Shown piece after piece: positions 1-55,000 of a stretch of 64,000 nucleotides of DNA. Position 1 is the stretch's first letter, and each line of letters begins with the position of its first letter. A program made the translations under genes and the position numbers. This DNA comes from Lytechinus pictus (Eukaryota): the NCBI RefSeq assembly GCF_037042905.1, contig NC_087250.1, positions 7,070,001-7,134,000 on the forward strand, in the 5' to 3' direction. The notes under the pieces are model-generated. The model saw only the letters and a program-made list of their open reading frames with translations. It ran no database searches and was not told the DNA's origin.

Positions 1-158
1 TCATCATCACCATTGTCATTATCATCATCATCCTCCTCATTATCACCAATATCATCATCATCATCAAAACCATCAATAACACCATCTTTCTCTTCCCCCA
101 TCACCATCACAGTGCATACCTCATAATCCCAATAGATGGTCTATATGTTAGATCATAC

Positions 159-331
159 CTCATAATCCCAATAGAAGGCCTATACGTAAGTCTCCATAGA
201 TATGCTGTCCTGTGCTGCCACCCCTGCATCAGGGGGTCATGCCACATCAGTTCTACTTCATTTGATGTGGTGTACGAGTGCCACAGAGCGTTGGCTAACG
301 TGGTCCCTGGGCCTGTTGTAGAGTGCACCTT
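159..331 (-). CDS. Exon 35 (most 3' found): TSP C-terminal domain
   Basis: [19 protein letters not shown]...LMWHDP...GW...[16 protein letters not shown]; no stop, continues past window. Confidence 0.9.
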
Positions 332-1743: not shown

Positions 1744-4700
1744 TGTTATTATAGTCATTATTATTATGACTATTGATACTATTATTGTTATTATAGTCAT
1801 TATTATCATCATTATTTTATCAGTATCATTATTGCTATTACTGTTATCATCATCATCATCATCATAATCATCTTTATGATTATTATTATTATCATTACCA
1901 TCATAACTACTATCATTTTTTTAATCATTATCATTATGAATACCATTTATTCACAGTAAAGATAGCCCCTATACAAACAGTATGATTTCTGCTGTCTATA
2001 CACTAACATCCATATATGGGTTCATACATGGGCGGAAATCCCAGGGGGGACAGGGGGGACGTGTCCCCCCTACTCAAAATAGTAGGGGGACACAATATCA
2101 AATGTCCCCCCTACTATTTGTGGTCTTTTATGATGGTAAGAAATACATCATTCAAAATCGAAATAAAACATGTATTTTAAAGACGAGATGACATTAATTA
2201 TGGGATGATAACCTTTTTTTTCTGCTTGTCAAATTTTCCAGCCCCTTGTCCCCCCTACATGTACATTTTTGGAGAAATTTCCGCCCCTGGGTTCATATGT
2301 AAAAAAAAAAAGGTTGATCATATTACAGAATTTTCCAAAAGCGTTGATCTAGAATAACTTACTGAATCTGTCAAATACCATGATGGCGGATCGTCCACCG
2401 TCTCGAGATTCACCGACATAAATGGGTCAAAGTTCGTCACATGGTAGCGGTTACTCTTCGGACAATTATCATCATCGTCTGTCACACCGTCTCCATCGTA
2501 ATCTGTCTCGCAAACATCTCCTATGAGGTTACCTAGAGCATGACATAAAAATAAACACATGGGACTGGTAAGGGGTCAAAGGTCATAGGAACATTAATTT
2601 TCAAGTTAGATAAAGGTGGCAAAGATTGTCACATGGTATCTGTTATTCCTAGGACAGTTTGGCACCTATCGCACTGTCTCCATCGTAGCTGTCTCTCCTT
2701 TGACATTATACCCAGAGCATTACATGATAATAAATACATTGGACTAGCAAGGGGTCAAAGGTCATAGGAACACTAATTTCAGGTAACTAATAGGGTGACA
2801 TATCCCTCATTTCTCTCAAAGCATTATGAAACATAAGATTCGAAAACAGTGAAGTAGATTGGAGAAAGTGTGTTGGGCCTACATGTATATGCTAACTAGA
2901 TAAAGAAGTGTAAAAATAGAAAGTGATGTAATACCATTGTCATCTGTCTGTCCAGCGTTAGGATATAGAGGGCAGTTGTCAGAGCTGTTTGGGACCCCAT
3001 CACCGTCTTTATCATCATCACATTCATCACCTGAAAAAAAAATGTCGAAAAGAAAGGACTTACATTGGGTGACAAATTCATGAAAGTTATCCGCACTGAC
3101 AAGTTGTAATTATCAAAGTTACTGTAGAAACAGTCAGCAACTAAAAACCAAGGAAAGTTGTCAGGGTGGTGGCGTTTCATAAAGCTGTTTGTAAATTAAT
3201 GGACGACTTTAGGCACGACTGGAACATGATCTCAGGTCTTAAGTCAGCTACTTAGGGATATATCTTTTAGCACAAGACAGGGTCTCCAGTCGTGCGCAAG
3301 TCATTCGTGACTTCTATGAAACAGCCTCCTAGGGCCCGTTTCATAAAGGACTTGCAACTGTTGTAACTTTGTTATAATGGCAACTACCATGGTAACAGGG
3401 CTCAGCAACCAATCAGAATCAAGGTTTCCATGGTAGTTGCCATAATGGCAAAGTTATGATGGTGGTCCCAAGTCTGCGCATCTAACAATTTGAGTTAAGA
3501 TTTAACATGAATTTCTTTTTATTTCACAAAATCTTTCAGTTAATAATGTTCCTTATATTACTATTATGAGTAAGTGTACCAAATATCTCCCAAAATTTGA
3601 AAGAAATTATAGTAATTTCTTCAAATAGTGATTAAATGCCCTACTGGTGAGTCCATAAATTTGATGTGTAGAAATATTTCAAGGAAAAGCCATATGCAAC
3701 AGGGTCAATAAGGGGAAAACAGGAAGTACTCTGCGAAATTATGAATGAATTCAATATTAAATTTAAAACAACATCCTCTAACATGTGGACAAATTTTCAA
3801 TTACGACTTTATATACTATTTTCATATCTAATGAAGATTTATGAGAACCTGTGTAAGAGGGCACTATCAATATTATAACATGGTTTTAATAGTGGCAGCG
3901 GTGGGATGTGCAATATGTCATAATATTAGTCAGCAAAATCCATTCTCATGTTCTTCCTAATACCCTATCAAAGCATTGTTTGTTTATTTATTTATTAATT
4001 TATCTAATTTCATTTGTTTATTTATTATTACTTAGACCAAATCGACAGTTTCTATCTATTTGGCCTCCTAACAGGCCAATTAGATAGAAACCTAATATGC
4101 AGCACTCTAATCTGAGATTAAGTATGACATTGGTTTTTAGTTTAACACATATATATAAGCCAGTTCACGGTTAGTTCATGGTCAACTTTTCTCAAATGAC
4201 CTTTGTGATTTTTCATTAGGATAAGCACTATCATTTTCAAATGTAGATGTTGCGTAAGCTTTACCAGTAGAGTATTCAAATTCTAAGAACAAAAGGCATT
4301 GTATAGACCAGTGACTAGAATAGTACATCAGGGATAAAGTTTGGAAATCTGTTTTATTTTCTGCCTTTGGCACATTTGACTATTGTTTAGGCTACTGTCA
4401 AATACCAGTGATTATGAAGGCTCTATTTATTACTCTTCAGCTTGGATGTGATAAAATGAATATTTTGAAAGGAATACATGAATAATCATCAAATCACAAA
4501 TGCCTTTGTCAGTGAATTTGAAAGCCACCTTCATGGTTTATCTCAAATGACCCTTTTCTGCTCGTGCGCAGTTTACAACCGTGAACAGGCTTATTCTAGC
4601 AGTATTTGAAGTATCTTTTTTTTTCTTTCCTTGATGGGATACATGTATTCATGTATGTAGAATTGATGATGAAAACAGTAATAAGTAAAAAAAGACAAGT

Positions 4701-7700
4701 CTACTGATCATTAAAAAACCTTTTAAAGAATGACAATTATCAAACACAACTCACCAACTCCATCACTATCCGTGTCTGTTTGATCAGCATTTGGTATAAC
4801 CAAGCAGTTGTCAGCGATATCAATAATACCATCACCATCACTGTAAGATAAACATTACATTAAGAGAACATTCCAAAGTAGAGAATGAGAACAAAAAATC
4901 AGAACATCCTAGGGTACTGTAGCATCAAGATATGCCTGATTTTCATGATAGATTGTACATTATTGTCATGCAATAAATTGTAAAAAAAATGTTCTACGCT
5001 GAGTGCTAGGCTTTTTTGTACGGGGCCCCAGGATACAAGAACTGCGTCATTATCATTTTTATTATTATCTACCCATCTGAAGCAGATCTACAAGGGTGTT
5101 GAGCATTTGTTAAGAATTTGAAAAAGCATCTTACCGATCTATATTGGTGCCATCATAATCATCGCAAGTATCGCCATAGCCGTTTTGATCAGTATCGGTC
5201 TGCGCAGAGTTCGAGTTGTCAGGACAGTTGTCACACACATCACCTATCCCATCGCCATCCGTATCCGTCTGGTCTGTGCTATTGAACAGCGGACAGTTAT
5301 CAGAGCTGTCAGCGATTCCTGGAGGTCAAAGGTCAAAGAATTAATAGGGTTAGATCTGTTGTATCAATCATCTACCATCTACTCTACTCTCGTGGTCTGA
5401 TGGTTACGACTCAGTGACACGTCTTTCAATCAGATGGACGTGGGTTCGAATCCCAGCCATGGTGTGTTTTCCTTCAGCAAGAAATTTACCCACATTGTGC
5501 TGCACTCGACCCAGGTGAGGTGAATGGGTACCCGGTAGGATTTATTCCTTGAATGCTTTAGAGCCTATATGGCGGCTCAGCTACAGCTGGGGTAATAACA
5601 AGATACCAAGTATCAAGCGCAGTAGAGTATATGCAATTATAGTAGCTGCGCTATATAAATGGAACATATTATTATAATAATTATATTCAGTCTGGTTTGT
5701 GATATTGAACAGGTAATCATTATCGACACTGTCAGTTATTCCTGGGGAAAGGTCAAAGGTTATAGAATTAATATGGTTGTATCCATAATCATCAATCATC
5801 ACAACTACTCTTTAACCCTTTGCGTGCGGGCCCGCGAAACCGGATACCTCTCCCTGCGGCAGAGCCCTTTTTGTACATTGCTGGTATTTGGATCTGTGGC
5901 AGTGTTTTCCTATATTACTAATTGCGCCAAACTGAAGTATTTTCTGGATTTTTAGTAAATGTAAAGATGAAAGATCAGACATTTTTCTTTCGAGAACTAA
6001 AGGTCTCGCTTCTCAAATCAACAGAATAGTTCAGAAATTTACGAGGAAAAAGTCCTGTTATTTTGTCAAATCTTTGCTTTTTCCCCAAGTCAATAGGCAC
6101 TGTGTACAAAAATGCGTAAGGGCAATCAGCACGCGCGGACAAGTCGGGTTCGATCGATACCGCTGTGTTGTCTGCTCTGGTGCTTTTTTTAATTGCCTAT
6201 TGTCACGCTACTCATGAATGGTCTCTTTACCCCCTTGTATACAGATCATTTGCAAAGTGTATAATTACGACGATAATCCGTTTTGGGTGAAATCACAGCA
6301 TACCAAATACCTTTATTTTCCAGAATGAATAAAAAAGGGTGAATATTCCCTTGCAAGTACAATGATGATGCTGCGCAACGAAAGTCCGAAACTATTTTTG
6401 GCTTCTGGGCTTTAAGACGGTGGCCTCAATGTTTCACTAAAAATCGCTTTTGGTTTCTTCTTTTCATGAATTATAGTTTGTAATAAAAAAATTATTTTGT
6501 TCCTGAAGATTGCATACCAGTCTTCGATTTGTTTTCCTGTTGCAATTTCAAAGAGCGAAGGGGGTAAATTTGACTCAAATAGTGGATCTGAAATCATACC
6601 TCCCAACGCTCTCCTCGTCTTGTTCTACGTTTCATTTTTCTATCTCCCTTTTCCCTCCAAAATAACCATGCTACCGATTACTGTTCGTCACAATGAGAGA
6701 AAGTAAATTATTTTTATCTATTGAAATTGTAGCATCTAAATTAAATTTAATCTTTTTCAAATATTTGGGTGTTGATTCTCACCAGGGTTAGCGCTCCCCC
6801 CCCCCCCCAAAAAAAAAAAAGTCAACCTGTCTTTTTTTTTCTTTAAATGGATCCTTTTCTGCTACGCTGTTGACCAGAAAAACAAAAGAAAAAAAAGAAG
6901 AAAGAAACTGGCGAAAAAAATTAATAACATTTTTAGGGGGAGGGTTAGGTGTAAGATTGAGAGAGGTTTGTCGGGACACGTCAAACAAAACATGTTTTTT
7001 TTTTTAGGTGGATGCCTCAACGTAAATTCTTATTTTATTTCCTCAATTTCCGGCGAGGAAACTTTTAGTTCATTGTTAGTTTTAGCGTTTGAACTGATTA
7101 TGCTTTTGTCGAATTTTCAATGCAAAAAAATTCACCTGGGAGAGAAAGAGAGAATGAGATGTAGAGCTTCCAAAACCTATCATGACAAATTCAATCTATA
7201 AAATGGCATGAGTTACAAAATTGAGGTGAGGGACTAGTATTCTATAATTCTTTATAAGTAAATATTCATGCAATAGCAAAAGCGCACATTATGGTTTACA
7301 TTATACCTTTTTGGTCCATTTCCTCTTTTTTCCCTTCCATCCTTTCTGTCGTTTTATCATTCTCCTATACATGTATCTCGATTTGCATTTTCTATTCTTT
7401 TTTAAAATCTCACTTGCATCTTCTTCCATCCCTCTATGTATCATCACCCAGGGGAAATTGTATTTTTTTGTGAAGAAAGCACTGTCATGCTCAAGAAGAA
7501 AATGTTCTTGCCATGTCTTAAGCGCCTGCCATGTTTTGTCAATAAATGAGTAAACATTTACTTTTTTGAATGTTACTGTCCTAATATGAATAGCAGTAAG
7601 AGCTTTTTGTATTGCTAAATACGAGAAGCATTCAGTAGGTCATCCTGACGAAATATACTAATCTTCCTTTTATTCAGGGCGTTGGCTATTTGTCCCCTGC

Positions 7701-10700: not shown

Positions 10701-13700
10701 ATCGATCGATGAAACCAAGGAGATATCATTCTATCTAGAGTGATATCTCCTTGATGAAACAAATAAGACGAAAATGGTGAATCAACGCGTAGCTTATTAC
10801 GTGACGATCTTGCAGAAAAGATAGCGTGTATCTATCAGAACAACGATATAGATCAAATCACGTGATCAGGCCTTGTGCGCGCGCGTACGTGCTCGTCACA
10901 AAATTTATCCTCCCCGTCAGACTCCAACGAGAAAATCGGGTAAAGTTGAAATGATTTCCTATTTTCGGGATTTTTCCCCACGTAGCTGTATATTTTTGTC
11001 AATCTATTATCGAAATAGGTTTATAAAGGAAATAGTGGCAGAGGTTTTAGTACATAACAATTACGAAAAAGCTGAAAAACTTCATTGAATTAAACCAAAC
11101 ATATCTCGGCTTCTGTAGAAGCCCGTCGTAGCTAAGTGAACGACTCGCTGGGCTTCTGTGGAAGCCCGTCGCACGCAAAGGGTTAATCATTATATTCAGT
11201 CTCGTGTGTGCTGTTAAACAGAGAATAGTTAGTAGCACTGTCAGAGATTCCTAGGGATAAAAAGTCAAAGGTCATAGAATTAATTGGGTTCCATCCATAA
11301 TCATCAATCATCACACCTACTGTATAATGATAACAATAATAATGATATGTGAAGCTTTATATAGTGCTTATATTAAAACAAATCTCTAAGCACTTTACAT
11401 AAATCAGGTAAGTATACTAATTATAATGACATAACGTTGAACAGGTAATCAGCATTGTCAGCAATTCCCGGAGGTCAAAGGTCAAAGAATTAATAGGGGG
11501 AAATCCATTGTATCAATCATCTACCATCTACTCTATAATCGTTGGATTCAGTCTGGATTGTGATATTGAACAGGTAATGGTTATAAGCACTGTCAGAGAT
11601 TCCTAGGGATAAAAGGCCAAAGGTCATAGAATTAATTGGGTTACATCCATAATCATCAATTGTCACACCTATTGTATAATCATTAGATCCGCTTTGGTTT
11701 GTGATATTAAACAGGGAATAGTATTCAGCACTATCAGCGATTCCTGTGTGTCAAGGGTCAGGGATGAATTAATTACTAAAGGTCAGAGGTTAGGAGTTCT
11801 ACTTATTTATCACCTATCAAAGCAATATCACAAATATTCTGTTCTGTGCTTTTAATCAGATGACGGTTATTGACAATGTCATAGATCCTTTATGTTTGGA
11901 TTTGAAATCAATAAAAATAAACTTGAAACTTAGATTCTTGAAGTGAGATGAGAGCTCGAAAAGCTAATTAGGTTCATATAGTGGCGGATCCAGTGAGGAC
12001 ATCCTGCCTGTGCCCCCACCCCCTTTTGAGAGCCATAATAAAAAAAATTATTTAAATATGCCGTTCTTACACAAGAGTGTCCCCTTTGGGAAGTCACAGC
12101 ATATATTCAAATGGGAAAATGTTGTTCACTAACAAGTGAGGACCTTCAATTTTAGGTTCATAGGTCACTTGTTTCAAACATCTCTCTATCAACATGCCAT
12201 CTTATTCCGTTTGGTCTGTGCTATCGAATAACAAATGGATAATTTGAAATTCAGCTCATATAGTTAGCTAATTTTGTCATCCCACATATAAACCCAACAT
12301 GTATTCTCTACCCCTCTAAAAAGAGATTCAGTCTTGTAAGAGCTATTGGAGAGAAAATAGAACATCAGAGTTAAGATATGTAAGAAACATGAAAATCAAA
12401 GGATTACTATAAAAAACTTACAGCCAAGGATTTGTTCTTGTACTAAAAATGATAATAATAATAATAATAGTGATATCTTATTGAGCGCACACACTGTCCA
12501 GAGACGCTCATGGCGCTAGCGCAGTAACAGTTCCTTTGGATACAAATATTTTATACACATATACATTATAAACAACTACAAATATATATATAAATAGAAA
12601 TCTTAAATCACTATTAGTACCATCCTGCATCATCACCACTGAAATTCCCAGCTACATCCTGGTAAGAACGTAGAACATTCAGGGGTCCAACAAGCACTGC
12701 ACACACTTATTATCCTTTAGACATGTATAAGCTGATTACACTGTGTAGCTTACAATCCTGGAAAGTGCATTGCACTGTGGACTATCTGGTATGAAAGTTC
12801 ACTACACCGTGTACTATCGTGAGCATACAACTATTCCTCTTACCATCTCCATCGTCATCGTTATCACACTCATCTCCAACCCCGTCACCATCGGTATCAA
12901 ACTGGTTGGGGTCAAAGGTCGAAGGGCAGACATCACAGGCATCACCATAACCATCTCCATCAGTATCGGCTTGATCTCGATTGGCTACGTACTGGCAATT
13001 ATCCTGAAAAATGAAAATAAATCATCATTACAATCTTCATGCTCATACAGAGACTCTTGAAAAGGACAATAAATCATCATCACAAACTGTGTGTAAATAC
13101 AGTGGAGCGTTGTGCCCAGTGGATTAGTATCCGGACTTTGAAACAGAGGGTCATGGGTTCAAAACCCAGCCATGGCGTAGTTTCCTTCATCAAGAAATTA
13201 ATCCACATTGTGCTGCAATCAACCCAGGTCAGGTGAATGGGTACCTGGCAGGAATTTATTCCTTGAAATGCCAAGCGCGTAAAAGCTGCTTGAGCTACAG
13301 CCAGGGTAATAATATCCAAGTCCTTTGGAAGCGCATAGAGACATTATTCATAATGTTATATGCACTATACAAGAACTGACAATTATTATTACAGAGGCTC
13401 CTGAAAATTACAAATCAGCACAAGCTTCATGTTCATAACAGAGAATCCAAATTCAATCCAGCTGATTCAAGAGGATGCGAGGGAATTTCTTTAATTTTTC
13501 CCTTATGTGTGAACACAGCATACTTTGTTGGCTATTATGTATAAACAGGTTTAGCGTAATTTGCACTTCGGTTGGTGACAAAAATGCATGCTTATTCATG
13601 CTGATTACAGAGGATCCTATATAAACATGCTGAATGACAGCAAGGATTAATAGCACTGCACGATATCACATATTTGAATGTTCAGTTGTCACAAGCTGTA

Positions 13701-32500: not shown

Positions 32501-35500
32501 TAAGGAATGAATAATAAAGCATATTTTGTTGCGCGGCTGGCAGAAGGGCGTTAATGCGCACGAGCCCTGGAAAGTACCCTTTTACAACACGTGATTATGT
32601 CATTGTAGGCAATTACAGCTATACTACATGTAAATGAAAGAACTATCAAAACTATGTCACACAGCACTGAAAATCAAAAATCAATTTTTCTGTAAAAAAA
32701 TCGCGCTAACGCCCTTCTGCCAGCCATGCGACGATTTATTACCAGTGGTGTAATGAAGAAAGTAATGATATTACTTGCATGCGTGGATTTATGTGGGGGG
32801 CGTCTTGGTCTAGTGGTTAAGACTCATCTTTCAATCTGAAGGACATGGGTTCGATTCCAAGCCATGGCGGTTTTCCTTCAGCAAGGAATTTACCCACATT
32901 GTGCTGCACTCAACCCAGGTGAGGTAAATGGGTACTGGCAGGAAGTAATTCCTGAAAAAGCTGTGAGCACTAGAATCGGTAGACTAGCTTAGCCGGGGTA
33001 ATACAGGAGCGCCTTGAGCACCTAGCAAGGAGTATAAGGGTGCTATACAAATCCTATATTATATATTCATTAATTTATTTGGTTTTAAAGTTGTGCCTTG
33101 CTTTATCAGGATTAAACCACTCATCGACAGGTAAACTTTCATGATTGTGGAAAAAGGTTTTATCGATATCACCCCTATGACATCATCTTTCTGCAGCTAC
33201 TGTATCAATTCTAAACACCACCATCACCACCACAAACAATCATTAGAGTATCACCTGATAAAAGGGGTATACATGTACCATGACTTGGACTTGAACCTTG
33301 CATTATCAGGATAAAATCTATTATCGTCATTATCATCATAACCGTCCAATGCCCAGCAATCTTCAACATCACCATCCTCACCACCAAACAATCGCAATTA
33401 CCTGATCAAAATGGTATATCAGGATTTGATCATCACTTGAGCCTCATCCAATCTGGATGGTAATAATGATCATTAGGCCCTACAAGCTATTCACTATACC
33501 AATCACCAACATAACTGTCATTTACATCACTATCATTAACATCACCACAAACTCCGCTAAAATCAATGTTACACTGAACCTTAATGGTGACATACCTGAT
33601 CCAGCTGGGATATCAGAATCTGGTTTGAGGTCGAGCCTTGCCCTGTCAGGATCGTATTTGTTATTGGTGTTGCTCGAAGAGGAGAGCTGAGCTTCTTGAA
33701 TCACACCGTTGGCCATACCTCGGGCGTCCCGACAATCTAGGAGACAGAAAAATATTGAAACATTTACACAGGGAGAATGGGTGGGTGTTTCATAAGGCTG
33801 TTCATAAGTGACTAATGACTTGATGCACAACTGGGGACACCTTCTTATTCCTGGGTAGCCATCCTAGCCCCAGAAAAAACCCAACATGGAGGATAGAAGA
33901 GAGGGAAGAGGATCAGTGATAAATCCCTGAAAGCACTTTCAATAAAGTTGTTCATAAGTTAAGCATGACTTTAAGAAAGGACTGGTATTTGTTCTTGAGC
34001 TTTACCATCTGACCAAGCATCACAGCCACATCTTTCCCACAGAAATCCTGCACGTTTTAATCCCTTAACATCACTGTTTCATCATAGACAAGACTATTGG
34101 GAATGTGGAAAACTGCTGTAAAAGATGCTGTGTCTTTATGAGAGTTAACTTCACCAACATTTACAGTTTTGCCTCAGATCAACAGATCAATATTGCCCTC
34201 ATCCTTAGCTCGAGCGATATGAGACAAATTAAAACAACAATCAGATACTTCTCCCTCAAGTCTTGTCAATATGACTTACCACATTCAATTAGGTAATACT
34301 TGGAAACCCCTAGGAAGTCACCAGTATAGGTAGATATTTTCAGCTATTTAACACTCATGATGCCTTACCATATTCAAAGAGGTAATACTTGGGCACCCTT
34401 AGGAAGAGACCACCTGTGGTTTCATTGGTGTAGATGATAGTTTCTATCGGTGCTCCTAATACATCATAGAGGCAGGTCTCACTGATAGTCAGGTTGACAT
34501 TAGCAACGTCCCCTCGGACAGGGACACCACCATCTACTACTGCGACGATCATCTCAACTTGGTAGAAAGAGGAGTTCCCAATGCGTCTAGGAAGAGGAAA
34601 AAATACATTCATTAGGGTAAATGCACTATGAATATGCATGCAACAATATAAGTTTATTGTACATGGATCAAGATGTAGAAGGATCTTGATGGATCGAGGC
34701 ACATCAAGTAATATTACATGCATTTTGCATTTGATTATATAATTTTGGAGAAATATTGAATAGAGAAGTACTTTTCAAATAAGACATGTAGACATGTAGA
34801 ACACTCAAGCATCTAAATTTCAAATTATCTATGTCTTTCCCTTTATTGTCAAAGTATCAGATATAATTATAAGCTATTAAGATGACAATACAAGAATAAA
34901 AGTAGGTCACAGAATACAAATAAATGGAGTGCCTCTGGCAGTCTCGTCTGCATTACGGTACTCAACATAGCAATGCTGACTTTGAAATAAGTACGATGAA
35001 TGGTTATTTACAAAAAGCCATTCACAAGATAATGAAATTTTTAGTTTATTGACCTTAAATGACCTTTGACATTGATCATGTGACCTGAAACTCGCTGTTA
35101 GGAAAGCATCTCGCATAGCTATGCAGGCAAGAGAAAAAAAATGGTACCTTCTGCTTTGTCAGGCGCTCTATGAGAATTAGAACATGTTATGTTGTGCAGG
35201 GCCCACTGGAAGAACAGCTGATAGCTGAAGTGGCTTTCCAGGGAAATACAAGTTATCATTATTATTATCACTGGGTCACGCTCGACTCTATACTCACTCT
35301 TCTGATAGTGTATTGGAGAGATATGTAAGTTCCGCATTAATCCCAGAGTCTTGATCGGTGGCATTAACGACAGCTAACTCAGCGTTGTTCAGGACAGGGA
35401 GAGGGAAGAACTCAAAGCTGTCATTGCCATTGAAGATTGGACAGTTATCATTGATATCATCGACATAGATCTGAAAGAAAGAAGATTTGCATACAACAAA

Positions 35501-38500: not shown

Positions 38501-39949
38501 AAATGCCGACGCGTACACCAAATGCAACGCTCCATCTTGTTGATCAATACGCAGTAGTGCGCATCCTCTTGGCATGATCTGACCAATGCGGTTATGCTTT
38601 TTATACTGTGCGCAACTAGTTATTTAAGTGCGACTCTGAGTAATACTTAAATCTTTGTGAAACACCCCCAAGATAGTTCTCAGTAATAGCCAAAATAGTA
38701 AATTGGTCTTCAAAAAGCCCAAAATGAATAATTAGCTTATCTGAAGTAGTATTTCTCCTTTATGCTGTACAAAATTCCAAATAGTAAAGTTGATTAGAAG
38801 ACAAGATACAAGCCTTTGCTTGACACAAGTTTTTTGTGGACTGCTTGGAAGTTTCTATAAAATTGCAGTGTGCACATCTCATGCTTGAGTGAACATAATC
38901 TTCAAACATTGTTTCTCCGTATTTTCTGAAGCTCTCACTTCGAGTCCTCTGCATTCAATCAAGTATTTCAGTTGGTAATTGTTGATCAATTTCGACAATT
39001 TATATATCATTTCAAAGCTACGGCTGTGCGTTTTCAAAATAAATTAAAATCTTAAAATTCATTTTGGGCGACTTATTGTTGGTCTGGATTGGCTGGTCAC
39101 ATTTAGACCTAGGGCCCAATGCAACTGAAAAAAAATCAAGAGCAAGTCCTGAATACCTGCATATGATTGGCTCAAAATCATGTCACAACTTATTTTTAGA
39201 GTTGAGTTTGATTGCATACTTTTCAATGCACAGGGTCCCATTTCACACGAAAGATCAAAACGGAAATATTATAGTGCGAACCAGGGAAGTAGAGAAAAAG
39301 TCGGCTCCCGAAAAAGTCAACAATGTTGTTAACTCTTTGTGCGCTGGACCATGAACCCATCTGTACTGAATTATTTTCAGGGAGGGAAACAATGCATTGT
39401 TTGTTGAGTGTGAAATGTGAAGTTCGCACGGCACCGAGTGTGCATTGGTGCGAAGTACGCGTGGAAAGGGTTAATACCCAATTTAATGTAATTATCCAAA
39501 AGATCACTATTAATATGAGTATATTTAGTGGCAGTTTGTCCCATGAAAACAATATAAATATCTCACCACTGACAATGGAAACATTATAATTTGGACCAGT
39601 AGAGAAATAGTCGGCTACCGAGAGAGTCTGGACGATGCCGTCTACACTCAAACCTTCGTTGATATGAACGGAATGATCGATGATTCTCTCATCCTCTTCC
39701 ATGACATTAAAACGCTTGAGCTCTAAGAAGAAATCTGATTTGCACATCTGCCTTTCGGTGTGGAAGATATCAAACCTATAGGCATCGCCAACCTATGGAT
39801 AATAAAACAATATATAGATAAAAATATATATACATATGAAATAAGAACAGATGATAAAGTAGTCTGAAGCACATATCCACCTTTCAGTGTGAAAGATATC
39901 AAATCTATAGCCATCGACAACCTATGGATAAATAAATAAATTAATAAAT

Positions 39950-39987
<38 letters not shown>

Positions 39988-40056: not shown

Positions 40057-43000
40057 CATCACCAACTTCTGGATATTCAAAAGAAGTAATATGAACGAAG
40101 ATGATACCGATGTATGCAAGGAAAGGCATAAACGTACAGAAACTTTAAAATGCCATCAACTTAATGAGATGGCGATAAATTTTATCTTTCCATGTTGACT
40201 TATTTGCAACAGGGGGTGTAAACTGATTTACTACAGCTAGAAATGATCCAACACTTGTAAAATTACAACATATATTTTTGGCTGAATGCATAATTTTTGC
40301 AATTCATTTGCAATAAATTTGAAATCGATTACAAATATTTGCCGGCAATATTCTCCCTGTTTAGTCAAAGCTATGAAATATTTCTTACCACAAGATCAAG
40401 TGTCACAGCCTCTGCAGGAACACTCCCGGTAATAACACATTCTCCATCTACAATACTGCCCTCTTCTGGTGTGATTGTACCACCTCCTAAATTAAAAAAC
40501 AAACAACCTTTCTGTTATGTTTACATTAATCAAATACAATTTAGATGCAAAAAACCTTTTCTCGTTCATGATCATACTCTATTCAAGGTAAGATGGGAGA
40601 CTAGTCCTACTTGAGTAAGATTCACATCGTTTGATACTGGTTATAACCTCTTTTTCTGACTGAAAAATGTGTAAAAATAAAGATGCACAGTGTACTCCAG
40701 TAGGAGCTAAAATGCACACTATAAGGATGTACAGTTGACTCAAGGAGTTATTTGAACTCAATAAATATTAATGTTCACTCTACAAGAAGTTATAATGCAC
40801 TCTATAGCAGTCAGTTGGCAAGCCCCTGTGTTAATGAGCAAGATTTATCCAAGTCCTCTCGTGGCTGAATTCATGTCCCTGCAAAATCTCGTGAATTGTG
40901 AGACTTTCTTTCTCAAAGAATTTAACCACTTTCTCCTTGAGTAATATTGATTATTTTGTACCATGGGCAAGAGTAAATGATACTCTTTTATATTGGTCAT
41001 TTCTTTTGAATGAAATATTTTGATAAATAAGTGAAATTTTTAACCTGAAAAGATGCATCACACAGAATTTTCTTCCTCTGTTTTCACTTGCAAATTGTGC
41101 AACATTTTGTGTTGTAGGCACCAACATTATTTATATCATCAGAAAGCTCAAACTCTATACTTTCTTACAATGTCACTCTTGATATGTGGCATCTTTTAGA
41201 TGGGTCAGCAGCCAGCTTTTTCCATCAAGATGCAAGACAAGATTTCTGAAATTTCTGAGTAACATAAAATCCAGAGTTCTGATTGGCTGAATAATGTTTT
41301 CAACACAACAGGCGCGAGTAATTTGAAGAGATTACCACATGGTGAGTGTGACCTTGCAGAGGCCCAGTGAGGGGAACATTGGAATTTGCGTGGGTATGTG
41401 GTCTCTATGACCAATCAGAGCGCAGTATTCTTGTTTTTTAGCTGCTAAATGTACTTGGCCTATGAAAAGCTTGCTGCTGACCCATCTAAAATACATCTTC
41501 TTATAAAAATTATATGATATTAAAGCTTAGATATTCAGCTTTATCATGATTAAAAAATCATTTGTGCTCAAACAGAAATTAAGTGTGAAAACAACAACTT
41601 TTGTTGCATGAAAAAATTATTTTGTTTCATGTTTTAGATCAAAAGTTTTTCCTATATTACAACATCCTTTTAAAAATCCAAACACATGACCTGAAAGAAT
41701 GATTCTCCTTCTTTACAAAGATACCAAAAACATGAAATTTGGTCAATATTTAGAGCAGCAATGGCCGAATAAAAAGAGGTGTTTTGGTTCGCACTAAGCT
41801 CATTAACTATGCAAAAACCCTCTAGTCATGAATATCACTTGGATAAAAGAAGCTACTTTTTCAGGGCTTGCCAACTGACTGATAGGCATTACAGTCCACT
41901 CCAGAGTGTTATAATGCACTCTATAAGTATTACAGCTCACTCAAAAAGGGGTTAAAATGCACTGTATGGGTGTACAGGAATTCATTCTGAGAGGAGTGTG
42001 ATTAGGAAGTAGAAGAGCTCTTTTGCTTTTAAAGAGTAGTAGGGCAATCCCTCAAACAATCAAACTTCATTCATGAAACCCAATTTTTCTCCATTCTTAC
42101 TTCTTTCCATGAACTTACTACTTATCCTGCTTAATCCAAGATAATTTAAGAGCATTAAGACCTTGTTGTATGCGACAGCAACTTACAAGAAAATTGTGTT
42201 TAACCCTCAAAATACCCTCTAATTTTGCATTTAAGACAGAAGGGTAATTGAAGCCAAAGTATACGCATACTGCACACAGTTTGTGGAATAGCGTGCCCAA
42301 CATGCGTAAAGATCGCTTCTCGGAGGACCATTGTGTCCTCAGATATGCTTAAACTAGTTTGATAATGAGGCAAAGCAGTGACTCTTGAAAACAACATCGC
42401 AAGGTGGTTTTCCAAACACGTTTGGAAGGTTTGGAAGATCGATTCCATGACCGCTTTGAGCATTCCAATTACGCGTTAAACTGTCTACTTTCCACTAAAC
42501 TACGTGTAGTTGTAGGACTTTAATGAGAATGGGGTCTCCATCACTTTCTTAACTCTTAATGTGACATTCACTGTAACCAGCGAGTGCCACTTTTTTCAAA
42601 GATTCTATATTTAAATGTTTTATTTACCAAAAAAAGAAAATCACTCATGAGACAATAATGTTAAACCTCTTGACCATAAGCTGAACTGAACAATGGAATC
42701 ACTCATGCATGCAATGCACTCCTCAAAATGCAATAGGCATAACAATAGCCGTGTGACCATTGCCCAAAAATGTGTTCGTGGCAGTCCAGTGGATGCACAG
42801 ATATGTGTTCATGGCACGTTAAGGGTTAATGTCACTTCCTCAGCAGATGAACTACACTGCCTTGGACTTTTTCTTTACTCTGGCTGAACATTAGGCTCTG
42901 GTGTTTAGTAGTGAAAGTCAAATCAAGGTTTTTTTTTGTTTACAAAACATCCTTAAATTGAAAGTCAGTGGGGCATTGGCTCTCATAGGGAATGGATAAT

Positions 43001-46000: not shown

Positions 46001-49000
46001 TTTGCCAAGTAAAGGGTACTCTGCATAAGTGATTTTTCTTAGGACAGACATCTATTTGACTAAGGCAAAATTTGACTAATAGAGGATGAAAATATTGCAT
46101 GTTTGACATATTCTGGGCTCCGTAACACAAAGGTTTGCAATCAATCGCTAAATATCAATGACCAATCAAGATCATTGTTGTATGCGCGCTCTGTTTAAAA
46201 TACTGACCGGGAACCAATCAGTGTGGTTCTTTCATATTTGAAATTAATGACAAACCTTTGTGTTACAGAGCCATGGTCTCAAATAATGCTTTGAGTTGGG
46301 CGATTATTCATCGTGAGAAAGGCTGACATACACAGAGTTTACTGTATAATACCAAAAACTGTACCTATTTATAGGGTCATATATAGACGAGGTATTCAAC
46401 CAAGGGATAACAATGTTGGTCTCAAAGACATAATTGTTATCAACATTCCTGAACCAATCAGAGAATGTATCGCTGGTCGGGTCATCTGATTCCCTCAACC
46501 AGGCAGGAAAGGGACTATCAACATAGGTGGGTGATATCTTCAAAGTCTTGGTGGATGAATCAAAATCATCCTCAGTGGCACTGTAGATAGAATGAAAAAT
46601 AAAGTTGGTGAGATGATGTATCCCTGAGGGACACCGCATGTAATTCCTTTTAACCCAGACTATCATTATAGATTTGTGATGTCTTCAACATCTTGTTAAA
46701 AGAATTGAAATAATCTTCAGTGGCAGTTTACACTGCATGATACACGTCATGTTTAGATTGATCAAAAAAGAGAGGTCCTAAAAAGGAGCCTTGAGGGATA
46801 CTTCATGTTACTGCAAGTGTTAAATTCAGATTAGCAAGATAGGTAGGTGATCCCTTCAATGTCTAGGTAGATAAATGAAAATCATCTTCCGCCCTTCCTT
46901 AGAAAAATAATGAGAGTGAACAAGGCATTATACAAACCTGAAATCATAATACAGGATCTGAAGTGAAATGTCCAATCCCCCAGACTCTGTCAGGTTTGTG
47001 GATGCTGGGGAGGAAATAAAATATCATCAAGAAAATCAGATACAAATTTCAAAAGGGTTCTCAAAGTCCAAGGAGCTCTTACAAACAGTAGATCTTTTGC
47101 CTTATTAGGACCATGTGCTTCAGGTCAAATGCCAGTTGTGGTTTCCCATGACAGTAGTGTTTACTGCAACTACTTCCATTAATCTTTAATGATACACATA
47201 CCCAATCATAAGAAATATAATGTGAATTTTGATTTAAATGAAGATGTTGATTTTATCTTAGAAAGAGTTACAATTGATCAGATCAACCTCAACTATTATA
47301 GAAATCCATCAATGTCATAATTTCTTCTACAGGAAATTCACACAATGTACTTTGTGAACAAAGATAAGCACAATGATTTGTTCAGAAAACAATGAATGTG
47401 TGAGTTCATCATATATAGAAAGTATTTTGAATAAACATGCATTTTCGATGTTGATGTTGCTGGCTTTCCATAAATGTGGTTGATTGAATCCATTGCAATT
47501 TTTTGTAAAACGAGGCCCAGTACTCCAACATATTGTGACATGAAAAAAATTGAACTTTATCATTCATTTTGCTGACACTGAACCATTTGCAAGAAACTTC
47601 CAATCAATAGCAAGGAGATTGGGTTCTTCAAATTTATCATACATCTTACAAGTAAAAGACCTTTAAATATGACAACATAATCCCACAGCGCCCTCCTTCA
47701 GAGGATATAGGAATACATGTAAACAGAGTTGTCAGAGATGCGCTAGCTGCAGATAACCAACACATGCAAGGCAATGGCTTCAGCCTCTAAGATGGCGGCG
47801 CAATGACATCACTGTATAAGGTCTAATGCCAATTTGTGATTGAATGCTGATATGCTTTCTGCACCGAGGAGGAATAGATTACCTGCTAAAATTGATCTTA
47901 TCAATACAGTTATTGTTAAATTGCAATTAAAATTTCACATGAAATTGCAACTACCAGAATGTTTTTTGCAACACCTCCTTAGACTATACCAATATGGAAG
48001 GATTAACTTACCAACATTTTCCAGTGTTGTTATAGGAATACTCTGCCCCTCCACACTCGTATTACCCCCGTATGTGAGTCTGAGTGTACACGTGTAGTCT
48101 GTCCCATACTGCACCCCATCACCAGATTTAAATAGGATACTAAGATCGGTGGTGTTACCGACCAATCCAGTCACAGCAGGTGCATTATCACTGGTGCAGT
48201 TGATCACATAAAACCTGGGATAGGAAAATAAACATTTTGTGAGTCTAGTAGTCTGTCCTATAGGATTTAAATAGGATACTAAGGACAGTGACAGTAGGGC
48301 CATTGACACTGGTGCAGTTGATCACATAAGACCTGGGGTAGGAAAATAAGATTATATGATGCTATTAGTCTGTCCTACACTGAACCCAATTATTTGATTT
48401 ACATAGGAAACTAAGATCAGTGACAGTGGATGCATTGGCACATAAGACTTACAATATGTAAGTAACATTGTGTGAGTCTAGTAGTCTGTCCTATACTGAA
48501 CTCCATTATTATTAGATTTTATAGAGGATACTAAGATCAGTGACAGTGGATGTATTAACACATACATGTAAGACCAATGGTATATAAGTATCATTGTGTG
48601 AGTCTAGTCGTCTGTCCTATACCGAAACCCATTATCAGATTTAAATAGGGTACTAAGAACAGTGACAGTGGATGCATTAACACATAAGACCTATGGTATA
48701 TACAGTGTAAGTAACATTGTGTGAGTCGAGTAGTCTGTCCTATACTGAACCCCATTATCATATTTAAATAGGATACCTAGATCAGTGATAGTGGATGTAT
48801 TATGGGGTCGTCGTGGTCTAGTGGTTCTGACTCTCGCCTTTCAAACAGAGGGTCGTGAGTTCGAATCTTAGCCATGGTGTGTTTTCCTTCAGGAAGAAAT
48901 TTATCCACACCGTGCTGCACTCTACCCAGGTGAGGTAAATGGATACCGGCAGGAAGTAATTCCTCCAAAAGCTGTGCGCATCAGAATCGGAAGACTAGCT

Positions 49001-52000
49001 TAGCCGGGTAATATAGGAGCACCTTGAGCACCTAGCAAGGTGGATACGTGCGCTATACAGATCTTATATTATTATTTATTTATTTATTTAACACATAAGA
49101 CCTATGGTATAAATAACAATGCGTGAGTCTATTAGTCCATCCTAAACTGAAACCCATTACCAGATTTAAATAGGATACTAAGATCAGTGTTAGTGGATGC
49201 ACTGACACATAAGACCTACAGTATCTAAGCGACATTGCGTGAGTCTAGTAGTATGTCTTATACTGAGCCCCATTATCAGATTTTAATAAGAAAGATCAGT
49301 AACAGTGGATATATTGCCAGTGTAATTGATCACATAACACTTAGGGTATGAAAATAAGATTTTGTGAGTCTAGTAGTATGTCTTATACTGATTTTAATAA
49401 GAAAGATCAGTAACAGTGGATATATTGCCAGTGTAATTGATCACATAACACTTAGGGTATGAAAATAAGATTTTGTGAGTCTAGTAGTATGTCTTATACT
49501 GAGCCCCATTATCAGATTTAAATAAGAAAGATCAGTAACAGTGGATATTTTGCCAGTGTAATTGATCACATAACACTTAGGGTATGAAAATAAGATTTTG
49601 TGAGTCTAGTAGTATGTCTTATACTGAGCCCCATTATCAGATTTAAATAAGAAAGATCAGTAACAGTGGATATATTGCCAGTGTAATTGATCACATAACA
49701 CTTAGGGTATGAAAATAAGATTTTGTGAGTCCAGTAGTCTGTCCAAAACTGAACCTCATTATCAGATTTAAATAGGATACTAAGATAAGTGACAGTGGAT
49801 GCATTGCCGGTGTAAAAGATCACAGAAGACCTAAGAAAATAAGATTTGGTGAGTTTTGCAGTCTGACCTATATTGAACCCCATTATCAGATTTACATAAG
49901 ACATGAAAATCAGTGACAATGGATGAATTGCAGGTAACAGATCACAGAGGGTAAGAAAACAAGATTTGGTGAGTCCTATATTAAAATGTAGTGGGTGCAT
50001 TGTCATTGTAATTGATTGCAAAAGACCAAAGGTACGAAAATAAGATGTGAGTCTAGCAATTTGTTTGAAACTGCAACCCATTATCAGATTAAAATAGGAT
50101 ACTCCGATTAGTGACAGTGCATAAGTGCATTATCAATACGTGCACTGATGGGAACATAAGTTTCAAATTTGTAAGTTGGGGAAAGAGGTCTGGATCCAAT
50201 AATCATTTCAAAATTTCCAATGACCTTTGTATTACATGACCTTCATGATAACTGAAGGTCATTGTCAATAATGATAAACAATTAGCACTGATGGGTGAAG
50301 GTCATTGTCAATGGCACTCACCAATATATGCTATCGGGGTACACTGTGTGTACCCCGATGTGTACTGATGGGAACACAAGTTTCATATTTGTACGTTGGG
50401 AGAGAGGTCTGGATCCAACAATCTTTTTTTTTCAAATTTCATATGACCTTTGTATTGCATGACCTTCATGATAACTGAAGGTCATTGTCAATGATGATAA
50501 ACAATTTGCACCGCTGGGATCATCAGTTCCCACGGGTAAGTAGGGAAAATATGTCTTGTTCCATCAATTTAACGATCATTTCGAATTTCCTGCGACCTTG
50601 GTATTAGATGACCTTCATGATAACTGAAGGTCATTGTCAATGACAATCAACAATTTGCACTGATGAGTGAAGGTCAATTGTCAATGGCACTTACCAATAT
50701 GTGCTATTGGGGTACATTGTCTCATTTGTGTAAGGAGGGTATAAGACATCTGGTTCAAACCATTCGACCAAGATCTGCTCAAACGCTGGTGCCGTCACAT
50801 TGATATCAGTCGGTGCTGCAAGAAAAACATAGCAAGAAGTGTAGGGAAGGTCATCATGGTTAATACACATAATCTACAAGGAATTTTAGAGTAAAGTATC
50901 ATGTATGTGTTCCCTTCAATATTTAGATGCTTATTTGCATAATATGTTAATTACACTTCAGATATTAAGCTGATTTATTAATGTATTGGCCATTCTTAGT
51001 GATCACATCATATTGATCTAGACTGAAATGTTGTCATAACTGTTTTTATGAGAAAAATCAAAATTTCTGGATTTTTTCCAAATAAGGATGCTCATTTATA
51101 TGCAAATGAGGTAGATTCATTTACGATTTTTCATTTTAAAAATAAATAAATTTGTAAAACTTATGCTTTCTGCACTTGATTTCCAATATTTGGATTGTTT
51201 TCCTTATTTGTAACTTATTATTGCTAATATGCATAAAATGCAAATTTCATGATTTTCATATATGCTTGTATATTTAAGGACTTTTAATATGGTGTTTAGG
51301 AAACCTTCCTGTAAGGTATTGCCATATTCCAATTTCAATAGATACATGTAATCTACTTACAATTTTTGAGGGATATATCACCAGTGTGTTTTCTTGAATA
51401 TTTACAACGTGTAAAGGCGACCGCACACCTTACGATTGGTCTGCGACCCGATTTCAGAATAAAATGTAGTAGAATTTTATGCTTATATTGAGACTTGGAA
51501 TATCTTACTGTGTAGTGTTCTAAATCATCATACGAATACCTATGTTCAAATCTGTGACTATGCTATCTTCCTTCTTAGAATAAAAGCAAATTTAATATCT
51601 AGTCGTAATGACGTCATAGCAGTCATACAATCGGCTACGATTTGAAACTAATTTGGCCTTTACTCCAAAATAAAGGCTTGCAATCTTTCAAAATGCTATA
51701 TGTGTATTCTTTCGATTGATTTTAACCTCAAATAAAATTATATGTTCCAGTCACATTTTCAGAAAATGAGCAAAATGTGATTTGTTCCAAAATCGGATCG
51801 CCAACAGTCGTAAGGTGTGCGGTGGCCTTAAGAGATATGGTATTACAAGATCATCAGGACCCTGCACCAGAAATGTTATCAATCGCTAAATGAAGTGGCC
51901 TATCACGACCATCGTTGCATGCCCATTTTGCTCAGTAGACTGACTAGGAACCAATCAAATTTGTGTCATGGGGCAATGGACTTGCAAAAGCATTCTTAAA

Positions 52001-55000
52001 TTTTATTAACAACCCATCAAAGTTGGAAACCAATCAGCTGCATAATGCATAAAAAGGAAATCGAATAAGAGGTGATGCATTCGCAGGAGACATTTTTTTT
52101 TTCTTACATGTAAAAAGCAATAAAACTTTTAAAAGCTTTCTTGAGTTACACTCAAATACATTCAGCTCTGTAATCTAAACTCGGATCGATTTTAAACACT
52201 GGTCAAAAGTTTTGGTTTGACTATGGATAGCAAAACGTGACACAAATATCTTACAGAAGGCCTATAAGTTCAATTGATCAGCTCTATTGACCATCAAATC
52301 ACCAAAAACTGTCTGGATGTCAACTAAAATAGTTTTCTTGACCAATAAACGCTAAGTGGAAACAGCAAAGTAAACATAATATTAACAAAATTCTGACATG
52401 TACATGTATAGCTTATACCAGTGTGTTGGTAAAGCGTCCATCTCACAACTGGGAGGTCGGGAGTTCAAACCCCGGCAGCGTTAAACCAAAAGACGTTAAA
52501 AGATGAGAGTTGCTGCTATCCTAGTAGTTGGCATTCAACGATGAAAGGGACAGAGCCTCATCGATCTGGCGCTGCACAGCAGCTGCCGGGCTCACAATCA
52601 ATTGGGTAAAGCAAATTTTCAGAGTGTTTCATTTCATGTCTATTTCAAGCAACAATGGATTTTCACTTTCACATAATTTCAGAACAGAGCTAGACCATGG
52701 CTAAAGTTTGCTTGTTAGTTTTCATTACTACATTCATCATTCATACATATGTGTTTACATATGCAATATACAAAAATAATCCTTGATATAAGCAATATAG
52801 TCATAATGCATAATAAACACAAACTAAAAAAGTAGCAGCGACTTCAGAATAAAGGCTTCAGAGTTTAACTGTATGAATTGAGATAAATGGAGTGATTTGT
52901 TGCACATGTACCTAAAACACAACTTAGATGATCCTGAGGAATTCAAAATAGATATACTTACTGCAGTAGAAGAGGTAGTTTTCTTGATTAAGGAAGTAGT
53001 TGAGAGACGAAGACTGCGACGATGCAAAGAGAGTACCAGTCAAACTATCAGGTGAAGAACATTCTCCTCCCGTCACCTGGGATAGGACGTCGTAGACCGA
53101 GAACCAGATGTTACAGCTGCAAGCAAGGTTGTTATTTGCAAGGTTCCTGTATAAAGGTGATGTTCAAAGATAGTACCAAGTGCAATGATCTTTCATCTAT
53201 ATAATTACATATTGCATCAATCTGGATGTTATAGACTCAGAACCATATATTACAGCTGCAAGCAAGGTTGTTACTTGCTAGATTCCGGTACAAAGGAAAT
53301 ATTCAAGTACACAGTTCAATGAACTTTGAGCAATAATAGTGCTCAGTGCAATGCACTTTCATCCATAATAGTATGCATTGCATCAAACTGGATGTCATAT
53401 ACTGAGGACCGGATGTTACAGCTGCAAGCAAGAATGTTAGTTGCTACTAAGATTCCTGTGTAAGAGATTTTCAAAAATAGAACACAGTGCCATGCACATT
53501 CACCCATGATAGTACGAAGTGCACGTTTTCTTCTACAGTTAGTATGATCAAAAATACAATCAGGTGATCAGGTTTTAACAAATCGATATTTATGGTCAGT
53601 CAGATTCATATTTTCTGGAATAGAAAGAAGGTGGCTTTTCAAGTATGTACATGTAGTGATAGTGAATAGGTTGATTAGTTGGTGCGCTAGCAAAAGATCA
53701 AAGGGGAATCATCTTTACAGTCATGAAAGTAGAGGGAAATTCCCCTCTGCAATTCATCAACTATCATCAGTTTCATCACCTTCATCAAAACTACCTCCAT
53801 CACCATCACCACCATCGTCTTCATCACTATCATCATCACCATCACCACTATCATCGCCACCACCATCATCATCCTCACCGGCACCATCATCATCTTCATC
53901 TTCATCATCACCACTATCATCATCATCATCCCCATCACGACTATTGCCACCATTATCATCATCATTATCCACATCCTAAGTCATACTTACACCGATGATA
54001 CACTCTCGAGCAGACTGAAAGCATTCTCCCCAAGTGTCCTGATCTGATTATTGGATAAGTCTCTGTGAAATAAAAACATAATATGAAACATGAAATATAA
54101 TATTAAACTCACATGAAAAGATGCACAAGTCCTCATAATTTCATCACAATAAGTTCATTTGTGATTCCTATCCTTGCTTTTACTATGCAAGCTCTCATCC
54201 TGATGCTCCCTCAGGCACACAAGCAGTAGACATACACATGTGCAGAGACAAACCAAGTGGGTGTTTCATAAAGCTTTTCCTATGCACGACTTTACGCACA
54301 AATGGAATCTGTTCTTAGGTGCTGACTGACTTGCTGACTAAGGTACATAGGACAGTGTGTCCCTTCGCTCTCATACTGATAATCCTATTCCATTCAGTTC
54401 TACCCTGGGCTAGGTCTACAGCAGCATCCAGTAGAGGGAGTCCCACATCACTTCTGGAAGGGGGACGTCCTGGCGGTCTCCTCATTTCAAAATCATTTCT
54501 GTATGCCTGGACAGGAAAGCTATTTTGTGGCATATGACAAATGTGCCCAAAACACCTCAGGTGTATTTTGTAGCTTCCTCACCTATCGTATTTTTATATG
54601 TACCGGTAATCTCCTGCTAATGTCTGCATCTCATCCTAATCTCCTTCTAATGTCCGCGGACTTAAGTACCAGTTCAGGGATATATCATTGAGCACAAGAA
54701 AGGGTCGCCAGTTATGCATGTAGTCATTGTGAACAGGTTTATGAAACACCCAACAGTACCTATCAAAATATCCTCATTTATCAATGACTCACCTTAGATA
54801 TCAAGCTGGTACAATTACAAGATTATTCTATATGATTTAAATGATTTCAAAATATGATTGAAGAACAAAAGAAAAATTCCAACTTACATCGTTGTAAGGT
54901 CTTCTAAAGCAGTGAAGGCAGGAAAGTGTTCGATGCGATTGTTGCTCAGATAGCTGCAATGTAGAAGATAGAAATGAGGGAAGGAGAACATATACGTTAT

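Follow-up and report, generated by a model that had tools for sequence, protein, structure and literature searches.

Local tandem copies of exon ends in the introns of a thrombospondin-like gene of the sea urchin Lytechinus pictus

Introduction

Small intragenic duplications that touch coding sequence have been described in several forms. Internal (partial) gene duplications in eukaryotes are said to have been treated by Gao & Lynch in 2009, who reportedly surveyed young duplicates genome-wide and stressed intron creation; intron gain by tandem duplication was reportedly treated by Hellsten et al. (2011), and tandem exon duplication giving mutually exclusive exons by Kondrashov & Koonin (2001) and Letunic et al. 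(2002). Here, we analyze a stretch of 64,000 nucleotides from the Lytechinus pictus genome (NC_087250.1, positions 7,070,001 to 7,134,000), which we refer to as the window and within which all positions are counted from the first letter. The window carries on its minus strand a thrombospondin-like mosaic gene for a matrix protein, and about one in six exon ends of this gene has a copy in the neighboring intron. These copies, which we call echoes, are local tandem duplications that include the end of the exon, its splice site, and the adjoining part of the intron.

Tandem duplication is presented as an accepted route to new introns or to shifted intron positions (PMC3443670, PMC2891723). Intron 7 (IVS7) of the human F7 gene contains a 37-bp minisatellite, the first element of which spans the border of exon 7, and the authentic donor is followed by pseudo-sites that remain silent, the most upstream site being the one chosen (PMC1557585). 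The echoes described below resemble this arrangement and are spread over many junctions of a single gene.

Results

Gene model

Thirty-four exons, numbered 2-35 in agreement with an earlier, preliminary description of this DNA, were located between positions 159 and 54953 of the minus strand; exon 1 is not among the located exons, and the gene continues beyond the window at its 3′ end. Exon borders were obtained from tblastn searches with proteins of Strongylocentrotus purpuratus in combination with a scan for AG and GT dinucleotides. All borders are of the AG...GT type, with the sole exception of exon 34, the donor of which (1276-1277) is GC in the context AAG/GCAAGT. Spliced in silico, exons 2-35 form a single open frame of 1680 amino acids. 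Two S. purpuratus models, P0002 and P0003, agree with the exon borders in tblastn; P0002, a protein of 1497 amino acids named 'thrombospondin-1', is 87% identical over the matched part (single-exon query), and models P0003 and P0005 were found for the upstream exons by further searches. At the transcript level, an RNA contig of 2135 nt, with no mismatch to the window, links exons 8-18 exactly at the borders of the model, and on its evidence exon 11 was revised to 40389-40486; a second contig terminates at the acceptor of exon 6.

Stop-to-stop frames on the minus strand contain thrombospondin type-3 repeat, EGF-like, cadherin-like, and discoidin-like pieces, and the Pfam domains of the ortholog P0002 are TSP_C, TSP_3, F5_F8_type_C, EGF, Cadherin, and Laminin_G_3. 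No Pfam match was obtained for five single-exon N-terminal peptides or for P0003, and the labels LRR/LRRCT, FN3, and PA14-like, given to N-terminal exons in our own reading, are tentative. The G+C content of the window is 37%, and micro- and minisatellites are abundant in it.

Echoes are local tandem duplications of unique sequence

The echoes were mapped by self-comparison of the window and by directed local alignments on the minus strand. Junction anchors consisting of 60 exon nt and 40 (or 10) intron nt were searched for in the adjacent intron up to a distance of 2.5 kb. Copies in direct orientation with an anchor score of at least 25 were found at 10 of the 67 junctions (11 of 67 over the two anchor designs), against a maximum of 14 for reversed targets, or 22 at one low-complexity site. 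The same anchors gave no such copy at any of the 67 junctions in inverted orientation, nor at any of the 67 in the intron on the opposite side of the same exon.

The copies are arranged head-to-tail, with a spacing close to the unit length on the donor side of exons 35, 24, 16, and 5 and on the acceptor side of exons 33, 12, 8, 6, and 4. The exon 30 pair is spaced by 423 nt because an element resembling a short interspersed nuclear element (SINE) is inserted between its members. In ten families the alignment crosses the exon-intron border, the exon contributing 26-115 nt and the intron 5-188 nt. The units measure from 39 to ~210 bp and occur in one to more than ten extra copies; the exon share of the unit varies from ~12 to 80%, and each copy carries just one of the two borders of its exon. 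Apart from the separate SINE-like element, the echo units have no further copy elsewhere in the window, and one DNA run gives a single-copy depth of 19.6 for the 600-nt bin that includes the exon 8 echoes, compared to 10^3-10^5 in repeat bins.

Copies that are direct, confined to the adjacent intron, absent from the rest of the window, and, in the exon 8 bin, of single-copy depth are local tandem duplications of unique sequence, which bears out the proposal of the preliminary description that the echoes arose by local tandem duplication and do not represent one mobile element. An interspersed element of the SINE type or a miniature inverted-repeat transposable element was rejected on the same evidence, the sequence not being dispersed. 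The exon 30 pair was also considered as a long target-site duplication of the SINE-like insert, a reading rejected on account of at least three further copies that lie elsewhere in the intron without the insert.

Donor-side echoes

All ten echo sites of the preliminary description were found again by self-comparison or alignment, nine of them clearly and exon 17 weakly, and two sites were added, namely the acceptor side of exon 8 and the donor side of exon 12. On the minus strand, as for all echoes below, the donor of exon 35 lies in a 39-nt unit present twice (115..192). The inner copy (154-192) contains the exon end and GT, and the outer copy (115-153) has kept GT; 154-187 and 115-148 are identical at 31 of 34 positions (anchor score 28). 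The unit is in frame (13 codons), and the open reading frame (ORF) runs through both copies. At exon 24 (20973..21300), a unit of ~155 nt comprises the functional copy at 21140-21300 and an echo at 20973-21145 that has lost its GT; the exon parts are identical at 85 of 105 positions and the intron parts at 38 of 56. Directly downstream of this echo in the sense of the gene lies a C-rich 25-bp minisatellite of ~25 copies (20116-20922).

At exon 16 (34266..34412), the functional copy (34355-34412) and the echo (34266-34323, GT kept) are spaced by 89 nt and share 47 of 58 positions (83% in blastn). The echo of exon 17 (33399..33656; functional copy at 33593-33656, echo at 33399-33462) is weak, with 43 of 64 identical positions and a score of 22 against a reversed-target maximum of ~14. 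At exon 5 (50141..50720), a unit of 150-220 nt occurs three times. The inner copy (50507-50720) consists of 26 nt of exon followed by GT and the intron flank, and it is identical at 172 of 214 positions to the outer copy (50141-50347), in which GT is kept; together with the middle copy there are three 93-nt cores, 84-88% identical. On the donor side of exon 12 (39259..39628), intron 12 contains, at 39259-39318, a copy of the exon end at 39574-39628 that agrees with it at 45 of 55 positions (score 28), and the alignment ends 7 nt before the donor.

Acceptor-side echoes

At exon 33 (2418..2779), the functional copy occupies 2418-2600 and the echo 2610-2779, with AG changed to GG; identity is 77/115 in the exon part and 59/68 in the intron part (73.5% over 185 nt in blastn). 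The acceptor of exon 30 (5264..5811) has its functional unit at 5264-5385 and a near echo with AG kept at 5687-5811, the two separated by the SINE-like insert at 5390-5598. At least three additional copies lie 6 kb upstream in the same intron (11184..11775), one of which, at 11445-11542, is identical to 5296-5393 at 18 of 23 exon and 66 of 75 intron positions; the 5.4 kb that separate these far copies from the exon contain further duplications. The same 7.5-kb intron 29 carries a large diverged duplication in several pieces, 6474-7870 versus 8539-10599, 73-81% identical at an offset of 2.1-2.7 kb, which could represent either a long repeat present twice or a segmental duplication.

At the acceptor of exon 12 (39728..39967), the functional copy (39728-39837) is accompanied in the intron by an echo (39857-39967) that has kept its AG and 22 open codons; 51 of 65 exon and 36 of 45 intron positions are identical (87/110 overall). 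The acceptor of exon 8 (46513..46889) lies in a unit of ~145 nt present about three times, with echoes at 46658-46740 and 46829-46889 (61/83 and 49/61 identical) that also match at the protein level. At exon 6 (48084..50129), a unit of 118-125 nt comprising the acceptor and the exon start has been expanded into a minisatellite (48215-48802 and 49086-50129), which is broken by a SINE-like insert at 48791-49089; its 77-nt core occurs 11 times, once in the exon and 10 times in the intron. Finally, a unit of ~139 nt occurs three times at the acceptor of exon 4 (53085..53523), with the functional copy at 53085-53216 and echoes at 53232-53350 (AG lost) and 53390-53523 (AG kept), blastn offsets being 139 and 305.

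A short motif, GGTCAAAGGTCA, has nine matches with at most one mismatch in the window, where 0.36 are expected, at positions that include 2574, 2753, 5324, 5751, 11263, 11473, 11615, and 12910. We rejected it as the mark of a mobile element, given that seven of the nine matches are tied to exons 30 and 33, being located either upstream of these exons or within their echoes; the remaining two are inside exon 29 and at 35060. Its position just upstream of the TSP3 exons 30 and 33 may mean that it belongs to a conserved branch-site region or is left from the homology of repeated modules. The latter would be in line with the idea that the echoes are left over from whole-exon duplication, from lost exons of repeated modules such as TSP3 and EGF, or from gene conversion. 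Indeed, the affected exons 30 and 33 (TSP3) and 24 (EGF) encode repeated modules, as judged from Pfam domains of the ortholog, and GGTCAAAGGTCA is common to the introns preceding these two TSP3 exons and to the respective echoes. Yet exons 4, 5, 6, 8, 12, 16, and 35, which are not of the repeat kind, also have echoes, each echo matches the end of its own exon together with its own intron flank and no other exon of the gene in the window, and only one exon border is found per copy, all of which makes such an origin very improbable.

Direction, decay, and age of the copies

Both the S. purpuratus proteins and the RNA contig align without a break to the inner copies. S. purpuratus P0005 is 85% identical at the start of exon 6, from which the 125-nt array was seeded, implying that this exon is ancestral and the array derived. 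The exon is accordingly the source and the echo the derived copy. The outer copies are 61-88% identical to the functional ones and contain stops, indels, and losses of frame. The functional exon parts contain 25 CpG dinucleotides, of which the echoes retain 4, whereas 10 have become TG or CA and 11 are otherwise changed; 6 CpGs are present in the echo only. This asymmetry fits the decay of an unconstrained copy and likewise identifies the exon as the source.

Two echoes have counterparts in independent sequences. P0004, a contig ORF from another S. purpuratus-like source, reads through an upstream unit of the exon 6 array that is colinear with 48327-48215, and a DNA contig from a run labeled as a different organism, 5-9% diverged, covers 46374-46716, i.e., exon 8 and 59 nt of its first echo. 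The echoes of exons 6 and 8 are thus not artefacts of the assembly and probably predate the divergence of these lineages, unless duplication recurred at the same junction. In the region of the exon 12 echo, the 185 nt of the window at 39880-40064 correspond to 55 nt in a different-organism contig. Residues ~142-189 of P0005 (XP_011665783), located after exon 7, look by eye like a frame-shifted exon 8 and were not used as evidence; the tail may stem from an error of sequencing, from a haplotig, or from an S. purpuratus echo that gene prediction included in the model.

Polymorphism is very high in sea-urchin genomes, and falsely duplicated haplotypes in the assembly of a heterozygous genome could in principle leave adjacent near-copies of the kind described here. 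We regard this origin as extremely improbable: identities of 61-88% with many indels are far beyond allelic divergence, the different-organism DNA contig spans exon 8 together with its first echo, an echo unit that precedes exon 6 forms part of the ORF of P0004, and two of the arrays contain SINE-like insertions.

Intron growth and the use of splice sites

Intron 5 (48215-50694, 2480 nt) is made of the acceptor array of exon 6, the three donor units of exon 5, and a single SINE-like insert, with almost nothing else, and intron 7 (357 nt) amounts to ~2.5 units of 145 nt; introns 3, 11, and 32 consist largely of echo and simple repeats. Growth of introns 5 and 7 by copies of their own borders is thus supported by their composition, and a rough estimate from the unit maps would be an increase from ~200 nt to 2.5 kb for intron 5 and from ~70 nt to 357 nt for intron 7. 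GT or AG is kept in ~8 of 13 aligned copies and lost in five. In the RNA contig covering exons 8-18, authentic sites only are used and echo sequence is absent (this is a single contig); likewise, the S. purpuratus protein models contain the inner copies only and no echo sequence. The read-junction table, like those of loose ends and of depth, is dominated by high-copy repeats, so that the reading of splice-site use relies on the contig, with minor isoforms beyond its reach. Of the two consequences drawn in the preliminary description, intron growth is borne out by introns 5 and 7, which are nearly all echo units, whereas the role of echoes as decoy splice sites receives no support from the contig.

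These observations bear on the possibility that the echoes have been kept for a function, either in the regulation of splicing (as decoys or recursive sites) or as alternative exon ends. Such a role would be consistent with the ~8 of 13 copies with intact GT or AG, with the exon 35 unit, a 39-nt extension that is in frame and has an intact donor, with the open codons and intact acceptor of the exon 12 echo, and with the two echoes common to other sea-urchin sequences. We nevertheless consider it improbable, because the RNA contig across exons 8-18 and the S. purpuratus protein models contain the authentic copies alone and most echoes have stops, frame shifts, and CpG decay, five of them also having lost the splice-site dinucleotide.

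Enrichment at junctions

The preliminary description implies that tandem duplications would be more frequent at junctions than at intronic anchors. Within the window, the outcome depends on what is counted: there is no excess by sequence fraction and there is one by the number of events, which fades to p values of 0.004-0.10 when events are placed near exons. All of these tests cover one gene and 17 events and employ a crude null. With 100-nt intron anchors, 564 of 3492 one-sided trials (16.2%; reversed targets, 5.0%) have a local direct copy scoring at least 25, which matches the junction rate of 10/67 (15%). The intron-anchor matches come mostly from simple repeats (270 of 409 trials) and from echo arrays (196 of 365); the remaining intron yields 98 of 2718 (3.6%), including 34 of 1788 within 600 nt of an exon. 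A (TATC)n microsatellite of ~1.8 kb in intron 23 (23262-25060) and a (TAC)n array of ~0.5 kb in intron 22 (26082-26579) dominate the count of intron anchors with local copies.

For the count of events, blind self-comparison yielded 14 clusters, one of which merges the exon 6 and exon 5 arrays; once the donors of exons 24 and 35, which came from the directed alignments, had been added, 17 families were obtained, the donor-side copy of exon 12 being counted as non-straddling. Fifteen of the 17 families lie near exons (within ~300 nt). When placement is confined to within 200 nt of exons, 10 of 15 families straddle a border against 7.32 expected (p 0.10). Thus, given the clustering near exons, the border is spanned about as often as geometry allows.

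Other repeats of the window

The SINE-like element, ~300 nt long, has copies that are 76-89% alike at 5390-5598, 13136-13312, 29496-29612 (inverted), 32783-33080, 45337-45478, and 48791-49089; two of them are inserted in echo arrays. The loose-end consensus near 32870 contains a tRNA-like GGTTCGATTCC motif. ARAGORN calls a tRNA-Thr(CGT)-like and a tRNA-Arg(TCG)-like sequence at 43162-43233 on the plus strand and 60955-61026 on the minus strand, respectively; since the flanking frames are alike, it is likely that each represents the head of a tRNA-derived repeat rather than a genuine tRNA gene. In intron 15, thousands of RNA reads from two organisms end with loose ends at 35043-35095, which indicates a highly expressed repeat or a small RNA-like element. 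Upstream of the located exons, a 180-bp satellite of ~15 copies with 89-92% identity occupies 57579-60331, and its sequence is unrelated to that of the echoes.

Discussion

A preferred history of the echoes

Our preferred interpretation, which we hold to be probably correct, is that the echoes are neutral relics of small tandem duplications in old exon-proximal sequence, with the deep intron consisting mostly of younger repeats. Small local duplications, through slippage, unequal exchange, or break repair, would by chance have taken in a splice site together with the exon and intron sequence on either side of it. The splicing machinery would have stayed with the copy still attached to the remainder of the exon, and the outer copies would in consequence have become ordinary intron. 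These would then have lost their frame, their CpGs, and in some cases GT or AG, and would later have been amplified or split by SINE-like insertions, with intron enlargement as the net outcome. The concentration of echoes at junctions would mainly reflect where old, duplication-bearing sequence survives, possibly with a modest extra effect of constraint on the exon copy and of the shielding of exon-adjacent sequence from large deletions. In 23 of 30 bins (18 kb examined), the summed read depth is at least 1000, and at least 17.9% of intron bases, a lower bound on the repeat content, have distant or inverted copies in the window, which suggests that the introns were once short and survive in the sequence next to the exons, much of the deep intron being too recent to hold duplications of comparable age. 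Given that these biases of detection and survival are presumed ones, the neutral origin is put forward as the preferred explanation and not as a demonstrated one.

A number of points weigh against this explanation. With random placement on the present-day gene, 10 of the 17 families straddle a border where 2.0-2.1 are expected (p ~3-4e-6), and the blind set by itself has 8 of 15 straddling against 1.84 expected (p 1.2e-4); two of the ten straddling families (the donors of exons 24 and 35) came from junction-directed alignment and not from the blind pipeline. To erase the excess, a combined odds bias of ~4-6 fold would be needed, and placement within 300 nt of exons leaves 10 of 15 against 4.84 expected, still nominally significant at p 0.004. 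For the echoes of exons 33 and 30, moreover, the intron part is closer to its source than the exon part (59/68 versus 77/115 and 66/75 versus 18/23, respectively), so that constraint on the exon cannot be the reason why these two were detected; CpG decay may explain the lower likeness of the exon part in both cases. In addition, acceptor-side duplications, which make up six of the ten, add a 3′ splice site upstream and should often be harmful at birth, so that a deficit of them would be predicted.

The same excess of events (10 of 17 against 2.06 in the full set, p 4e-6) is what a process tied to the junctions themselves would produce. Duplications would in that case arise or persist preferentially at exon-intron borders, candidate causes being breaks or polymerase stalling linked to exon nucleosomes, transcription, or splicing, or else selection for sequence near splice sites. 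The low rate of copies among non-echo intron anchors within 600 nt of exons, set against 10/67 at junctions, argues in the same direction, as do the many units of 118-210 nt, close to the size of a nucleosome (a link that would itself be conjectural), and the echoes of the same junctions elsewhere, that of exon 6 in P0004 and that of exon 8 in the different-organism contig, which could reflect either recurrence or old age. On the other hand, the tests concern a single gene, intron trials match the junction rate when counted by sequence fraction, no excess remains at the 200-nt placement limit, and an exon share ranging from ~12 to 80% of the unit is at odds with a fixed breakpoint. We therefore consider a junction-linked process unlikely. 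The broader proposition that in echinoderm genes short tandem duplications favor exon-intron borders and introns enlarge mainly by budding their own junctions, in the way that introns 5 and 7 seem to have grown, is, in our estimate, more doubtful still.

Implications

Taken at face value, the gene provides a clear worked example of intron growth without transposons and shows silent pseudo-splice sites accumulating beside real ones. For annotation, it is relevant that gene finders can take up echo copies, and the locus is equally pertinent to studies of splice-site choice. If properly controlled tests were to show the excess at junctions to be widespread, a connection between small duplications and exon borders, by mutation or by selection, would be indicated, with consequences for the old problem of how the size of introns is determined. 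If introns do enlarge by budding their own junctions, genes would be seeded with reservoirs of pseudo-splice sites through a mode of intron growth distinct from transposon insertion.

Comparison with known systems

The urchin gene shares some features with each of the systems outlined in the Introduction. As in internal gene duplications, small intragenic tandem copies contain exon and intron parts along with latent splice sites; the emphasis there is reportedly on intron creation, whereas in the urchin gene pre-existing introns were enlarged. As in intron gain by tandem duplication, a short duplication touches coding sequence and one copy ends up intronic. In the intron-gain model, however, both new splice sites derive from a duplicated exonic AGGT segment, whereas the urchin units include part of a pre-existing intron, so that the defining features of that model are absent. 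Intron gain was also rejected at the level of the gene, where the exon borders match contiguous segments of the S. purpuratus models and no new intron is present. As with mutually exclusive exons, local intragenic duplication leaves exon-like copies in introns; those, however, are whole exons with both splice sites and a conserved frame, unlike the partial, one-border, decaying copies found here. Mutually exclusive tandem exons were accordingly rejected, each copy having one border only and most containing stops or indels. In the open-access papers searched, no genome-wide survey describing a concentration of tandem repeats at exon borders came up, which is weak evidence that none has been published.

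Among the systems compared here, F7 IVS7 is the one that the echoes resemble most in construction: the donor echoes of exons 35, 16, and 5 are built alike, and the exon 6 acceptor array is its mirror image (PMC1557585). The statement in the preliminary description that such an arrangement was not known to have been described is hence too strong, the same construction having been reported at one junction. The silence of pseudo-sites, which is experimental in the F7 work and in the urchin gene relies on a single RNA contig, and the choice of the most upstream site in F7 offer, by analogy, a possible reason why donor echoes are tolerated in the urchin gene. There are clear differences as well. 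F7 involves one junction on the donor side, with near-identical units of polymorphic copy number, whereas the urchin gene has echoes at 10-11 junctions, six of the cases being on the acceptor side, with identities of 61-88% and longer units (39 to ~210 nt) that are mostly present once or twice. The echoes of this gene are thus a known kind of event occurring at unusual density.

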